Source: a virus
Reading direction: 5' to 3' (one strand)
UHGV virus genome: UHGV-0353144
Length of the DNA: 13,630 bases
This document shows positions 7,626 through 12,188 of the stretch, in pieces (position 1 is the stretch's first letter; the number at the start of each line of letters is the position of its first letter). Under the pieces are notes generated by a model. That model was not told where the DNA came from, searched no databases, and saw nothing but the letters and a program-made list of their open reading frames with translations. The translations under genes were made by a program, and so were the position numbers.

Positions 7626-7804
7626 CTTGTTTTCCTCGCACGTTCTCTAAGCCACCGGATATCCCACAGGTGAGCCGTGTAGTTGAAGGTTTTTACGTCA
7701 GATTCTTTTGGGATTGGCTTGCGTTTATTTCTGGAGCGCTTCGTTGGAAGGTATTTGCAGTTTTCGCAGATTATGTCGGTGATACTTCGTCGCTGTCGTC
7801 TCAT
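7622..7804 (-). CDS. ninE: NinE
   Basis: ATG at 7804 (ATGA overlap with ninB stop) gives [60 protein letters not shown], matching lambda/DLP12 NinE by recall. The longer ORF-track start at 7864 is probably an upstream extension. Confidence 0.8.
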
Positions 7805-8244
7805 GCCGCCCTGTCTCCCCATCGCGCTTTCCATTCGAGAGCCAGTCTCGCTTCGTCTGACCACTTAACGCCACGCTCTGTACCGAATGCCTGTATAAGC
7901 TCTAATAGCTCCGCAAATTCGCTTACACGCATCCTGCTGGTTGACTGGCCTATTACCACAAAGCCATTCCCGGCAAGGTTAGGAACAACGTCCTGCTGCT
8001 TTAATGCTGCTGTAAAAACGCACTTCCAGCTTTCTGCATCCAGCCAGCGACCATGCCATTCAACCTGACGAGAGACGTCACCAAGGCAAGCCCAAAGCTT
8101 TCGATTCTGGTCTAAGCTGCGGTTGCGTTCCTGAATGGTTACTACGATTGGTTTGGTTGGGTCTGGAAGGATTTGCTGGATAGCTTGAATGGCGTTCTGC
8201 TGATGGATGGTGCTTCTTAGTTCAAACGTTAGTTTCCTCACCAT
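7801..8244 (-). CDS. ninB: NinB (Orf-family recombination mediator)
   Basis: 147-aa product [68 protein letters not shown]... is near-identical to lambda NinB by recall. Confidence 0.9.
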
Positions 8245-8386
8245 TTACGCTCCTGTAATCGTCAAGTGCAGCTGCAATAGTCCCTATCGGGTCATGGTCT
8301 TGCCCGATAATCTCATTTACGTTTTCATCTTCTTCCACACCGAAAAAGAATCGCAGGGCTAACATGATTTCTTCGTATGCGCTCAT
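8222..8386 (-). CDS. hypothetical small protein (54 aa, acidic)
   Basis: Hand-translated: [54 protein letters not shown]. Strong SD GAAGGAG 5 nt upstream of ATG at 8386. Starts 2 nt after the upstream ORF stop; its 3' end overlaps the ninB start. Confidence 0.45.
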   Translation of the reverse strand: MSAYEEIMLALRFFFGVEEDENVNEIIGQDHDPIGTIAAALDDYRSVNGEETNV

Positions 8387-8388
8387 AC

Positions 8389-8628
8389 TCACTCCTTCAC
8401 TTTGACTCCAGCAGCGCGGATGGCGCTCTGCACCTCGCTTACATACAGATATGGGGTTCGCCCACTATGCATGGTAAAGCTTTCAGGAAGCTCAATCTCG
8501 ATAGCTGCTCGCGATGCCTGCCACGCTTGCCAATACATCTCAACCATATTGGCGTATATTTTATTTTTAGGATCACATCCGGTGTAATTTTCAAACCATT
8601 CTTCAAACTGCTTTCTTGATTCGTCCAT
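8389..8628 (-). CDS. hypothetical protein (79 aa from ATG 8628)
   Basis: ORF-track ORF 8389..8652 begins at GTG; the ATG at 8628 has a GGGGA SD and gives MDESRKQFEEWFENYTGCDPKNKIYANMVEMYWQAWQ... No family recognised. Confidence 0.5.
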   Translation of the reverse strand: MDESRKQFEEWFENYTGCDPKNKIYANMVEMYWQAWQASRAAIEIELPESFTMHSGRTPYLYVSEVQSAIRAAGVKVKE

Positions 8629-8629
8629 A

Positions 8630-8845
8630 TCAATCCCCGTTAGTCGTTTCACTCACGAATCTGACAAAACCAGCCATGTTAATTTGCATGAGTTTTTTCA
8701 ACACTTTGTCTCGCCGGCTACGTTTTGGTTTTGGCCTGTGGTTGAATCTTTCACAAACTGGAAGGCTTGACGATTTCCAGTACCTATTACGCCTTGCTCC
8801 ATCTTCCGCCATATCGGCATGAATAAGGTCTGCGAGTGTGCTCAT
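8630..8845 (-). CDS. hypothetical basic protein (71 aa)
   Basis: ATG at 8845 with GGAGAGG SD (track start 8851 is GTG). Product MSTLADLIHADMAEDGARRNRYWKSSSLPVCERFNHRPKPKRSRRDKVLKK... is Arg/Lys-rich. Confidence 0.45.
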   Translation of the reverse strand: MSTLADLIHADMAEDGARRNRYWKSSSLPVCERFNHRPKPKRSRRDKVLKKLMQINMAGFVRFVSETTNGD

Positions 8846-8859
8846 ATTCACCTCTCCAG

Positions 8860-9042
8860 TTACATTGGTTTTGTAATGTTGCTAGTCATCTTACGAATAA
8901 AAAAATGCGTACGTAGCTTTGCTTCCCACATGTAAATCTCCTCAAGGCGAGATAAATCTACGAATACCGGACCTTTGTAATCTGGTCTTGATGCCCTTAT
9001 GTATGAGCTAATAGTTTGTGCATCTTGCTCGTCAAGATTCAT
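8860..9042 (-). CDS. hypothetical protein (60 aa)
   Basis: ATG at 9042 with GAGGG SD; overlaps the upstream 67-aa ORF end by 11 nt. The region is A/T-richer than its neighbours. Confidence 0.4.
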   Translation of the reverse strand: MNLDEQDAQTISSYIRASRPDYKGPVFVDLSRLEEIYMWEAKLRTHFFIRKMTSNITKPM

Positions 9043-9235
9043 GACTTCCCTCTCTAACAGATTTCAGGTTATTCCACTCCGTTACCGCACTGCGATAATT
9101 CGCGGCCGCCACAACAGCGTGGTTAGCGCAGTAGATTTGGCACCCGTTCTCCATGTCGAATATTGTCGGTGATTTTCCGCACTTACATTTTTTGGCACGC
9201 GGTGCGTCTGAACACATTCCGTTAACGGTGTCCAT
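9032..9235 (-). CDS. hypothetical Cys-rich small protein (67 aa), possible zinc ribbon
   Basis: ATG at 9235 with GAGGG SD 8 nt upstream. Product MDTVNGMCSDAPRAKKCKCGKSPTIFDMENGCQIYCANH has five Cys in the first 36 residues. First gene after the terminator that follows the helicase. Confidence 0.5.
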   Translation of the reverse strand: MDTVNGMCSDAPRAKKCKCGKSPTIFDMENGCQIYCANHAVVAAANYRSAVTEWNNLKSVREGSHES

Positions 9236-9260
9236 CAGGATCCCCCTCGTTCTTAATCCA

Positions 9261-9289
9261 ATAAAAAAGGGCTACTGTGTAAATAGCCC
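9261..9289 (-). terminator. intrinsic terminator after the helicase gene (tR2-like position)
   Basis: Stem GGGCTA (9269-9274) / TAGCCC (9284-9289) with a 9-nt loop; on the minus-strand RNA it is followed by UUUUUUAU (complement of 9261-9268). About 30 nt downstream of the helicase stop. Confidence 0.55.
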
Positions 9290-9319
9290 CTGTTATTAGC
9301 TCAGTGATGTAGATGGTCA

Positions 9320-10756
9320 TCAGAATCCTCCTTTCTTCTTGGACTGCGGTTCCTCGCGTTCACGGCGGCGCATTTCAGCAGACTGTTGGTCTGTGTCATA
9401 AATAGCGCCATTTGCCTGAATGCAATACACCGTGCCGGTATTGCCATGACGATTGAGACGAAGGATTAGTTCGGTTTCACCAGGTGGAACACTGTCATCA
9501 AAAGCGCCTTCACGATGGATCCCAACCCAATAATCGCAATCCTGTTCAATCTGCCCTGTATCTCGTGAGTCACTTGGTAATGGGCGTTTATTGGTTCGGC
9601 TTTCCAATGCGCGGTTAAGCTGCGTCAGAAGCACAACAACGCAATCAAGCTCTTTGGCAAGGTTCTTCAGTCCTTTGGTGATCATGCCGTAGGCAAGGTC
9701 GTTGCGATCGGCCTTCTCAGCGGTCATTAGTGTCAGGTAATCGACCAGAATCATGCCAACACATCCTTTTTCTCGCTTGATTCGACGGCTTTCGCTGACG
9801 ATTTGAGCCAGAGATAATCCCGGCGTGTCGTCGATGTAAAGCAGGTCGATTTCACTCAAGCGATTGGCTGTTTCGATCGCCCTGTTGAAGTCACCATCGT
9901 AATCACCCTGATAGCCGTCATCAGCGTCATTTGTCGCCGGAAGGTAAAAAATATTCGGGTTAACACCAGACTTCTGCCCTACCAGTTTTTCCAGTATCTG
10001 ATCACGTGGCATTTCAAGGCTGAACATCAGAGCGGGCTTTTTCTCATGCACTGCGCAGTTGATTGCCATCTGGCTGTATAGCGTCGTTTTACCCATCTTA
10101 GGGCGAGCGCCAATGACAAACAGAGAGCCTTTCACCAGACCTTTCGGTGACAGCATCCTGTCCAGCGATGGGATCCCTGTGCTCATTCCCCGTTGTTCGC
10201 CTGACGGGTCAAATCGCTTCTCAAGGTCGCTAACCCAGCCTTCCATGACCTCACCAAATGAGCGAAGGCCGCGACGCGATCCGGTTTTTGCATGGTCTGT
10301 CAGTTGCGTGAAAATCGCCTGAATAGCTTCGTACTTCTGCGTTGCAGTCATTCCATTGCGGGAATAGAGCAATTCCGTCGCTTCAGTCATGCGGTTGATG
10401 GCGTAGCGTTCCATTGCGGTTTCACGAACCTGCATTGCATAGGCAACAATGTTTGCTGCGCTTGGCGTGTTCTTTGCGATCTCAGCGATATAAGCAAAAC
10501 CGCCAACAGACGCCGTTAACGATTTACGCTCCAGTTCATCGAAAAGCGTCAGGCCATCTACTGGCTTTTGCTCCCGGTGCATTCTGGTTATTTCTTCGAA
10601 AAGGATTTTGTGTGGTCGGCAGTAAAATGAATCAGGCTTCAGCATCGCCAGAACTTTCTGGACGCGCTCACTGCTGTCATCATCCAGAAGCAATCCACCA
10701 ATCACCGCCTGCTCTGCCTCGATGCTATGGGGCGGCGCATAAAAATTATCGGTCAT
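9320..10756 (-). CDS. replicative DNA helicase (DnaB family, P22 gp12-like)
   Basis: ORF 9320..10771 begins at GTG; ATG at 10756 has a GAGGG SD. Walker A GARPKMGKTT and a DnaB-like N-terminal domain (IEAEQAVIGGLLLD). Start overlaps the O-like gene end by 11 nt. Confidence 0.9.
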   Translation of the reverse strand: MTDNFYAPPHSIEAEQAVIGGLLLDDDSSERVQKVLAMLKPDSFYCRPHKILFEEITRMHREQKPVDGLTLFDELERKSLTASVGGFAYIAEIAKNTPSAANIVAYAMQVRETAMERYAINRMTEATELLYSRNGMTATQKYEAIQAIFTQLTDHAKTGSRRGLRSFGEVMEGWVSDLEKRFDPSGEQRGMSTGIPSLDRMLSPKGLVKGSLFVIGARPKMGKTTLYSQMAINCAVHEKKPALMFSLEMPRDQILEKLVGQKSGVNPNIFYLPATNDADDGYQGDYDGDFNRAIETANRLSEIDLLYIDDTPGLSLAQIVSESRRIKREKGCVGMILVDYLTLMTAEKADRNDLAYGMITKGLKNLAKELDCVVVLLTQLNRALESRTNKRPLPSDSRDTGQIEQDCDYWVGIHREGAFDDSVPPGETELILRLNRHGNTGTVYCIQANGAIYDTDQQSAEMRRREREEPQSKKKGGF

Positions 10757-11645
10757 CGTGTTCACCCTCACGAACTTTCAGGTAGGTATTATCGTTAAGC
10801 AGGAAATCAAATCCCTTTTTGTGCCAGACGGTTCCGCGCTGATGGTTTGGGCGCTCTTCGAACATCCATCGGCAATTTTCGCCTACGTAGCTCAAATAAT
10901 TTCTCCAGTCCTGCATCGTGAACCCATGCCCGTCGAGCTGGCGGGTTATCACTCCGGCTTTGCGCCAGAACGTTCGGATCTGGTTTTTACGCTTGTCATT
11001 CAGTGCGCGGATTCTTGGCGCTTCAGGAAGGATTTCGTGGTAAGCATCGACAACATCCTGACAGCTAACGGAAGGTTTTTTCTTGTCAGACTTTTTGTCT
11101 GCTGTGGCACTCTCTAATACGTCAGTATTAGAGATAATATTATTATATTCTTTATCTGTGGTAATTTGCTGGTAATCTGCTGGTACAGTATTGCTTACAG
11201 GCATTGGTATTTCTGGCTTTGAGGTGGTAATTTGCTGGTAATCTGCTGGTACAAAATTTGACTGATAATCGTCATATTTCTCTACCGAGAAAACTGAGAA
11301 TTTACCGTGTGAAACCCAGTCAATCATGCCGAGTTTTTTGAACTTTCTAAGCAGGTACTGAACGCGATCTGGTTTGAGTCCTGTTTCAAACGCCAGAGAG
11401 TTTCTACCGCCAAGTAGCTTCCCTCTGCCTACCAGAATTTCTCCTGCGTCAGTCATTACATACTCAGGCGTATGCTTTGCTTTGAGGATTAAGTGAACCC
11501 ACAGATGCGCAGCTTCTGCGTCCTTGTAAAACGGCACATCCATAATTTTACGGTGCAGCAAGGCATACCCCTTACCGCTGCTTTGATGCGGTTGTTGTAG
11601 CCTTCTGGCCTCTCTGGCTTCGGCTAGATTAGATATGTTACTCAT
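10746..11645 (-). CDS. replication initiator (O-like / P22 gp18-like) containing the origin iterons
   Basis: 299-aa ORF with AAGGAG SD. Sits upstream of the DnaB helicase and contains direct repeats plus an A/T-rich tract in its coding sequence, which show up as the duplicated peptide [10 protein letters not shown]-terminal HTH-like segment. Confidence 0.75.
11131..11253. repeat. replication origin: A/T-rich tract plus two perfect 30-bp direct repeats built from 11-bp GGTAATnTGCT units
   Basis: GTGGTAATTTGCTGGTAATCTGCTGGTACA occurs at 11158-11187 and again at 11224-11253 (perfect copies, 36-bp spacer). Each copy holds tandem 11-bp sub-repeats. A/T-rich tract at 11131-11156. All inside the O-like ORF, as for lambda ori. 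Confidence 0.7.
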
Positions 11646-11784
11646 GACCTTTCTCCTTCTGCATCAGCTTCACTTTTTCCAACTCAGCCCGGAATCGACC
11701 AGGCTGCTTGAAGCTGGACAGGAAGCGATCACGTAGTATGTTTTTGTGCATTTTGTCCTGGTAAGGACTGAGTGGTTTTGTCAT
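11638..11784 (-). CDS. hypothetical small protein (48 aa)
   Basis: Hand-translated: [48 protein letters not shown]. Strong SD GAGGAGG 4-5 nt upstream of ATG at 11784. TAATG stop-start overlap with the 134-aa ORF; its stop overlaps the O-like start. Below the ORF-track size cut-off. Confidence 0.4.
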
Positions 11785-12188
11785 TAAGCCTCCTCTACTT
11801 CGTAATCAGCGAAGTAACCAGTAGACATTTTTAAAAACCTTGATTCGGTGACTGTGTAAGCCTTCCTTCCTTTCCTCTCCTTGCCTTCAGGCTCTATGAG
11901 GTGGCACGAATAAATGATTCTGCGCTGCCAGTTGCCTGGCATTTCCACCACTGCCAGAACCTCAAGAATTCTCTTTCCTTCAGCATCAGCGGTGTAAAAA
12001 CACTGATCACCATAACCACAATCGGCTGGCTCATAATTTTTGTGACAACCGCCAATCCAGCGCTCATCGGTATGCACGTTGCCGTCATAAGACTGATAAT
12101 CTGTGCATACGAAGATAAATGGATATACGGTTTCGAACTTGTCACCGGCCTTTATGCCGGTGTTTACTTGCTTGGTTTGTCCTGGCAT
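11784..12188 (-). CDS. hypothetical Cys/His-rich protein (134 aa) inserted between cII and the O-like gene
   Basis: ORF-track ORF 11784..12395 (203 aa) would overlap cII by ~170 nt. ATG at 12188 has an AGGAG SD (ACAGGAGTAATT-ATG) 34 nt after the cII stop. Product [65 protein letters not shown]... has 5 Cys and 3 His. No family recognised. Confidence 0.6.

Follow-up and report, generated by a model that had tools for sequence, protein, structure and literature searches.

The nin genes of phage lambda are non-essential, as judged by the nin5 deletion, and are tightly packed with ATGA junctions (PMC8022706). A locus of similar build lies in the 13,630-nucleotide (nt) stretch of the viral genome UHGV-0353144 analyzed here (hereafter the window), in which a run of five small open reading frames (ORF1-ORF5) is situated, like its neighbors on the minus strand, between a gene for a DnaB-like helicase and ninB. 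As in the lambda ren/nin block, the run follows the replication genes, with a tR2-like terminator in front of it, and consists of small packed ORFs with ATGA-type junctions and a mosaic, apparently dispensable content (PMC8022706), but its five ORFs have no homology to Ren or NinC-NinI of lambda, and the helicase position is held by a DnaB homolog in the window versus P in lambda. HK97 and CUS-3 resemble the window more closely, since in both phages gp56/gp60 follow a DnaB-type helicase gene, the hairpin lies inside the NinA coding sequence, and the overlap is 14 nt.

We propose that the nin region opens here with a mosaic cassette, the genes of which are small, accessory, and independent of one another, would be expressed as delayed-early genes, and may play a role in conflict. 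Taken as a whole, this explanation appears to us the probable one; its structural and evolutionary part is held with high confidence. The role is put forward more tentatively, at somewhat less than even chances: each ORF would act on its own as a small modulator of conflict between phage and host or between phages (restriction alleviation, other counter-defense), and not a component of one multi-gene machine. The first-pass annotation, made from the letters of this DNA, had described five packed ORFs of 54 to 79 amino acids (aa) between the terminator and ninB, and had assigned them to the ren/ninA slot at the variable beginning of the nin region, a known site of accessory genes. The coordinates confirmed the former, while the latter agrees with the flanking families (phrog_19 and phrog_72) and with a slot content that varies between relatives.

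Contents of the slot in related phages

The DNA spanning the helicase end, NinA, and gp60 is 98 to 99% identical at the nucleotide level between the window and both HK97 and CUS-3. These two phages, HF4s, and others share with the window only these first 283 nt (helicase end, NinA, gp60) and then continue at once with ninB. In the junction alignment, the window equals HK97 up to ...GGGAAGTCATGAA, the ATG of which begins ninB in HK97 and ORF2 in the window, with the breakpoint at GTCATGA(A). Since identity with HK97 ends at this shared ATG, ORF2-ORF5 are, relative to HK97, a block of four genes inserted at precisely the initiation codon of ninB. The insertion would also account for the end of ORF1: gp60 of HK97 and CUS-3 has 70 aa, terminates in ...SHEKTNL, and overlaps ninB, whereas ORF1 has 67 aa, terminates in ...SHES, and overlaps ORF2, because four genes were inserted at the ninB ATG.

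A survey of the slot in 56 related loci and in annotated phages revealed varied combinations of the following genes: NinA, gp60, ORF2, DUF7301 or its 45%-identical paralog, an ORF4-family gene, and then ORF5, a Lar-family gene, or nothing. HK97 and CUS-3 carry NinA and gp60 only; Shiga toxin (Stx) phages carry NinA, the DUF7301 paralog, and Lar; and BTP1 carries five other or related small genes. A Lar-family gene lies directly before ninB in Escherichia coli MB64, in loci L112 and L132, and in phages 24B and BP-4795. At least 80% of the run was found in 2 of 5426 complete E. coli genomes and in none of the phage records, while draft assemblies and metagenomes contain the exact arrangement again (L143 and eight similar places). 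Since close relatives do without them, the genes of the run would be dispensable for lytic growth, and recombination at the short conserved sequences of the junctions may move them from phage to phage.

The location of the run between the helicase and NinB could also mean that its genes encode auxiliary replication, recombination, or nucleotide-metabolism factors, that is, housekeeping modulators acting with these two proteins. The strongly basic ORF3, which could mean nucleic-acid binding, would fit such a role, as would the ORF5 homolog that Klebsiella phage FBKp34 carries between nrdD and nrdG. We nevertheless consider this explanation unlikely: HK97 and CUS-3 have near-identical helicase-end/NinA/gp60 DNA and a 94%-identical NinB, yet lack ORF2-ORF5, and the genes pair freely with NinB types only 37 to 46% identical and occur alongside replication proteins of more than one kind (a primase-helicase in L145, a lambda-type P in BP-4795).

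Organization of the locus

The features of the run and its borders are collected in Table 1. The helicase stop and the NinA ATG share one base (TGATG), NinA and ORF1 overlap by 14 nt, and ORF2 and ORF3 are separated by 14 nt. The 11-nt and 23-nt overlaps (ORF1/ORF2 and ORF5/ninB) and the gaps of 1 and 2 nt (ORF3/ORF4, with the sequence TGAnATG, and ORF4/ORF5) given in the first-pass annotation were confirmed, as were its remarks that one ORF is Cys-rich (ORF1), one basic (ORF3, isoelectric point [pI] 10.35), and one acidic (ORF5, pI 4.05), and that part of the run is A/T-richer. The GC content falls to 0.405-0.445 over positions 8500-9100, compared with about 0.47-0.55 in the flanks, and is lowest in ORF2 (0.38). 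The inventory of five ORFs in the first-pass annotation stood, except that a sixth, the 32-aa NinA, had been overlooked.

Table 1. Coordinates of the run and of the features bordering it in the window
Feature	Coordinates	Strand	Description
DnaB-like helicase	10771..9320	minus	483 aa; phrog_19; ends TGATG
NinA (ORF0)	9320..9222	minus	32 aa; phrog_5907, E 6.9e-18
Terminator hairpin (tR2-like) and U-run	9291..9267	minus	within NinA; 3' of helicase stop, 5' of ORF1
ORF1	9235..9032	minus	67 aa; Cys-rich; phrog_6308, E 1.3e-50; HK97 gp60
ORF2	9042..8860	minus	60 aa; phrog_21123, E 5e-40
ORF3	8845..8630	minus	71 aa; pI 10.35; Pfam DUF7301 (PF23975); phrog_1785
ORF4	8628..8389	minus	79 aa from ATG; Pfam PF26207 (Phage_phiTE_015); phrog_343, E 4e-26
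ORF5	8386..8222	minus	54 aa; pI 4.05; phrog_1603, E 1.5e-32
ninB (Orf recombination mediator)	8244..7801	minus	phrog_72, E 3.1e-57; right-hand edge of run

Counted from cI, which is on the plus strand, the gene order is cI, cro, cII, a gene for a 134-aa protein, an O-like initiator, the helicase, the run, and NinB, followed by NinE/NinF-like genes, an Ant/Roi-like gene, YbcO, RusA, a NinI-like phosphatase, and Q. The window is thus a lambdoid early-right operon, of a prophage of the HK97/P22 type. The ORF between cII and the O-like gene (about 11784-12188, minus strand) matches phrog_30464 (a 134-aa profile, E 1e-94), has no Pfam match, and marks a second accessory-gene slot in the early-right operon.

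NinA and ORF2

The 32-aa hydrophobic product of the overlooked ORF, the coding sequence of which holds the terminator hairpin, is 100% identical to HK97 gp56 and 94% identical to CUS-3 ninA, and in all of them the gene comes directly after the helicase gene; by these matches we assign it to NinA (HK97 gp56/CUS-3 ninA). Its exact sequence is present on at least 1000 public contigs. NCBI records often label it 'histone H1', a label that is clearly spurious. Some public sequences (proteins P0002, P0004, and P0165) contain in-frame fusions of NinA with gp60, among them the 98-aa P0002 (20 member sequences) and the 153-aa HF4s_0047. These fit the loss of one G in the G5 run of GAGGGGGA (9235-9250, minus strand), which is also the Shine-Dalgarno sequence of ORF1. 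Since G5 was present in all 13 fetched loci with an exact match to the NinA/gp60 junction sequence, the fusion is either rare or a sequencing error.

The homolog of ORF2 in Stx2a phages is 88% identical to it, and that in Serratia phage Eta 41% identical along its full length; the exact ORF2 sequence was found on 696 contigs, and the ratio of nonsynonymous to synonymous polymorphism (pN/pS) of ORF2 is 0.25-0.57. Neither ORF2 nor ORF5 has a Pfam family. The 90%-identity cluster to which ORF2 belongs is represented by a 122-aa NinX/DUF2591 protein with no similarity visible by eye, probably a clustering artifact.

ORF3 and the modular ORF4

ORF3, with 15 Lys and Arg residues, matched PF23975 with an E-value of 1.6e-31 and 108.6 bits (cut-off 27) over positions 1-64 of the 65 of the model, and is an ordinary, end-to-end member of DUF7301; NCBI names identical proteins 'DUF7301 family protein'. 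The exact sequence is carried by at least 1000 public contigs. Homologs sharing 64% identity are encoded by Salmonella phages BTP1 and L, and a 45%-identical paralog is encoded next to Lar in Stx phages. In two of the latter, 24B and BP-4795, the paralog lies directly upstream of Lar, and the annotation of BP-4795 merges part of it with Lar into one 'Lar-like' coding sequence. L093, L094, L099, L101, L104, and L107 carry a second DUF7301 paralog (45%) after the ORF4-family gene and before ninB, at about 3183-3350 in L093 and in the loci closely related to it.

ORF4 has 488 homologs. The Pfam set scanned here came without the PF26207 model, and the assignment of ORF4 to Phage_phiTE_015 (PF26207) is taken from precomputed tables, which give this family for the identical protein P0017 and for all 120 homologs listed; on these matches we regard ORF4 as a member. 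An upstream GTG at 8652 was rejected as its start codon, as all homologs begin with MDESRK.

Hundreds of enterobacterial prophage proteins have in common with ORF4 the three anchors MDESRKQFEE, W.AWQASRAAIEI, and IRAAGIKVKE. At the DNA level these are nearly invariant, synonymous sites included (ATGGACGAATCAAGAAAGCAGTTTGA, TGGCAGGCATCGCGAGCAGCTAT, and CGCGCTGCTGGAGTCAAAGTGAAGGAGTGA, the last of which includes the next gene's Shine-Dalgarno sequence), and they flank two hypervariable segments that are unalignable between alleles. At least seven N-cassette and at least ten C-cassette types occur in many combinations (36 DNA alleles; loci L001-L006 and L090-L136): the N-type of the window is found with five different C-types, and its C-type with two N-types. 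The loci were fetched with near-exact ORF3 peptides, so that the contrast between variable ORF4 and invariant ORF3 is partly built in. The allele of the window itself is present on 91 contigs. This pattern is one of modules exchanged within the gene through recombination at short, conserved linkers; the diversity may be due either to selection for diversity or merely to frequent recombination. A short, 62-aa form of ORF4 (L003, L130, L134) is devoid of the middle anchor and the C-cassette, and in L132 (2718-3176; IMG/VR) an in-frame fusion of an ORF4-family gene with a Lar-family protein yields a product of 152 aa that ends ...AVIAWNRRAGDEETNV.

In the AlphaFold2 (AF2) model of ORF4 (pLDDT 77), the N-cassette and the middle anchor form a helical hairpin predicted with confidence, and confidence is low for the C-cassette; no solved fold was found for the Phage_phiTE_015 family. 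Under a bolder hypothesis, which we rate as improbable, the members of the ORF4 family would be specificity proteins of modular build, with two exchangeable hypervariable cassettes on a conserved helical scaffold that would be reassorted at the three anchors of about 25-30 nt and would recognize variable targets of the host or of rival phages; alongside it, gp60 would be a divergent CxC/CxxH Lar-like branch, and the acidic ORF5 would substitute positionally for Lar.

It is still somewhat less probable that the basic ORF3 and the acidic ORF4 form a two-gene system, e.g., a toxin-antitoxin, exclusion, or regulator-effector pair, to which the ORF4 cassettes would give specificity. Besides the complementary charges, this idea draws on the 1-nt spacing of the two genes (TGAnATG), invariant in about 45 loci, and on their order, which is kept in BTP1 and phage L despite identities of 64% (ORF3) and 35 to 43% (ORF4). 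The count of adjacencies is, however, biased, as loci were picked via near-exact ORF3 peptides. In L145 and L146, moreover, the identical ORF4 allele follows not DUF7301 but a 68-aa membrane protein with two transmembrane segments, and in Stx phages the DUF7301 paralog is followed directly by Lar, without an ORF4 homolog. The ORF4 family is also present in seszw-like and Pseudomonas phages (examined for the presence of the family), and neither ORF3 nor ORF4 matched a PADLOC or toxin-antitoxin family. As an obligate pair, ORF3 and ORF4 were rejected, given the same ORF4 allele without DUF7301 in L145 and L146.

ORF5 and the junction with ninB

ORF5 is very acidic, with 13 Asp and Glu against 2 Lys and Arg residues, and occupies the slot held elsewhere by Lar. 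It shares 91% identity with its homolog in Salmonella phage BTP1, which likewise lies directly before ninB, and 49 to 61% with homologs in virulent Klebsiella myophages of 137-147 kb; at least 1000 public contigs carry the sequence of ORF5 unchanged. With the conserved core YEEIM.AL...EII.QDHDPI.TIA.ALDDYR, it is a two-helix-type protein with a conserved DHDP turn.

The first 23 or so nucleotides of ninB encode, in another frame, the C-terminal tail of the preceding gene. This tail, ...E(K/E)TN(V/L), recurs on gp60 in HK97, on Lar in E. coli MB64, and on ORF5 in the window (8222-8244; L004:1476-1498; L002:2673-2692), and the 23-nt overlap is therefore a property of the ninB junction and not of ORF5. 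The overlapping junction before ninB is conserved and survives replacement of the gene that precedes it.

Signals for expression

Every ATG from ORF1 to ORF5 is preceded at 4-7 nt by a purine-rich Shine-Dalgarno sequence, as the first-pass annotation had stated; the sequences are GAGGGGGA, GAGAGGGA, GGAGAGG, GGGGA (weak), and GAAGGAG. The consensus scan identified a 10-bp terminator stem followed by TTTTTTATT. Its RNA folds with -17.7 kcal/mol (z = -4.08), and none of 200 shuffled sequences folded as well, so the post-helicase terminator is real. Between 9600 and 8222, the promoter scan detected nothing like a sigma-70 promoter on the minus strand; its sole match on that strand (7799..7770) lies downstream of ninB. 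No terminator was found by scanning 3' of the run, the only one being located upstream of it, and the Rfam scan of 7700-9700 returned no RNA family. Transcription of the run would accordingly start at pR and reach the genes only once antitermination carries RNA polymerase past the terminator embedded in NinA.

Presence/absence polymorphism and a GC content somewhat below that of the flanks would also be expected of lysogenic-conversion genes ('morons') that are expressed from the prophage and benefit the host. We regard this as very unlikely, as the hallmarks of morons are absent: the coding strand has no promoter-like site inside the run or just upstream of it, and no terminator comes after it. 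The genes also lie within the early-right operon, which is repressed and to which they are linked in translation.

Coding capacity of the ORFs

Each of the five ORFs matched a PHROG family of its own (E-values from 4e-26 to 1.3e-50), so the statement of the first-pass annotation that none is recognizable did not hold: all five belong to named or numbered families. They are not, on the other hand, characterized housekeeping nin proteins, as the families have no assigned function. Full-length homologs of the ORFs with 35 to 64% amino acid identity were found in other phage groups. For ORF1-ORF3, pN/pS was 0.07-0.57, computed from small counts, those of ORF1 among them; NinA was uninformative. 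Taken together, the family matches, the distant full-length homologs, and pN/pS values below 1 support the earlier view that these are real genes, and the five ORFs and NinA are conserved protein-coding genes.

That some of the ORFs are untranslated, i.e., chance frames open in DNA conserved for another reason (recombination linkers, RNA elements), might be read from the small substitution counts of NinA and ORF1, which preclude a firm pN/pS, and from the omission by the Prokaryotic Genome Annotation Pipeline of NinA, ORF1, and ORF2 in three RefSeq E. coli prophages (L001:1504-2193; L002 and L003:1501-1976), and of DUF7301 also in L001, but is hardly credible, because the skipped ORFs are intact and 97 to 100% identical to those of the window, the 35 to 64%-identical full-length homologs keep frame, length, and conserved residues, every ORF has a Shine-Dalgarno sequence, no Rfam match falls in the region, and opposite-strand ORFs are without support.

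ORF1, the Lar family, and a possible role in conflict

Lar/RalR proteins (PF14354, TIGR03655; lar of Rac) are about 60-70 aa long, and their genes lie directly upstream of ninB in lambdoid phages. For Rac Lar/RalR, activity as a DNase toxin has been described as well, and even membership of ORF1 in the Lar family would therefore leave the mechanism unfixed.

ORF1 shares 97 to 98% identity and an equivalent genomic position with HK97 gp60 (AAF31135), which by these matches places it in the gp60 family (phrog_6308). Its exact sequence was found on 105 contigs, and the 70-aa form on 514. The protein, which contains Cys at positions 8, 17, 19, 32, and 36, comprises a putative zinc ribbon and, after it, a C-terminal helix with AVxEWN; C8, C17, C19, G20, C32, C36, H39, W54, and N55 are kept in full-length non-chimeric members of the family, including the divergent P0137. 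The family is tiny (16 clusters). A HMMER search with the ORF1 profile over 1.84 billion representative proteins recovered eight representatives, all of the family itself, and no sequence bridge to Lar.

In layout, ORF1 resembles Lar in its size and in the succession of an N-terminal Cys knuckle with a Gly, a beta hairpin with a second pair of metal ligands, and a C-terminal helix with A-[IV]-x-x-W-N. It differs in the ligands, which are CxC...CxxH in ORF1 (C17-x-C19 and C36-x-x-H39, plus the conserved C8 and C32) and the four-Cys CxxC...CxxC in Lar, and in the residues after WN (NL or SL in the ORF1 family, RR in Lar). When the ORF1 family was compared by hhalign with an alignment of 55 Lar sequences from IMG/VR loci, a probability of 68% was obtained (P = 4.7e-5, 40 columns), and none of 300 column shuffles reached this score (maximum 22.6 versus 23.3). 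The alignment paired C19-G, [IV]-x-C36, and AVxEWN with C-G, V-x-C, and AIxAWN of Lar. With a Lar hidden Markov model (HMM) built in this analysis, ORF1 scored 8.3 bits. The topology of its AF2 model, four strands and then a long helix, is compatible with Lar. ORF1 may thus be called Lar-like in layout, a likeness short of demonstrated Lar membership.

Associative support for a role of the run in conflict, and nothing more, comes from the neighborhood: besides Lar directly before ninB, many relatives carry a gene for a Dam-type methyltransferase after ninB, a setting related to restriction.

Several results weigh against the proposed cassette of small conflict modulators, mostly against its functional part. 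Delayed-early expression, as of the lambda nin genes, and translation coupled from gene to gene would both be carried over from lambda, and the pattern search for boxA/nut returned no site in the expected place, nor was an N gene identified in the window. Scans of all ORFs against Pfam, NCBIfam, and PADLOC gave DUF7301 only and no functional match. Literature searches with family names, accessions, and locus tags returned nothing relevant to the five families, and none of the five proteins appears in the supplements of the screen of 200 accessory genes by Silas et al. As to Lar, neither ORF1 nor 13 members of its family matched the Lar HMMs PF14354 and TIGR03655, even at E <= 10, while the genuine Lar of E. 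coli MB64 scored 50.5 and 53.8 bits on them. An unrelated NinF-like zinc ribbon from the window, used as a control, reached 66% against the same Lar alignment over 26 columns, so that what links ORF1 to Lar is chiefly its additional AVxEWN helix. For ORF1, AF2 gave a poor model (pLDDT 53), and a BFVD fold search with it gave no fold match (best E 1.2). PDB sequence searches with ORF2-ORF5 and Lar likewise returned no match. Finally, in the 141-kb virulent myophage Klebsiella phage vB_KpM_FBKp34, an 83-aa homolog of ORF5 (gp115, L088:2405-2656; 57% identity over the core) is encoded between nrdD and nrdG, the genes of anaerobic ribonucleotide reductase, a setting that is uninformative and does not point to anti-restriction.

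Significance

The finding as to the slot is an ordinary one, namely conserved hypothetical genes, already cataloged, in a textbook variable slot of lambdoid phages. Its value lies in the map of coordinates, families, junctions, and alternative slot contents, which covers six very common enterobacterial prophage proteins. The cassette shuffling in ORF4, the one unusual feature encountered, offers a compact natural case of intragenic modular exchange that can be tested for target specificity, and if the modular reading of ORF4 were true, this protein would be a previously unrecognized, rapidly diversifying counter-defense or exclusion factor at the start of the nin region. Placed where Lar-type anti-restriction genes often occur, the genes of the run are cheap and well-defined candidates for anti-defense screens.

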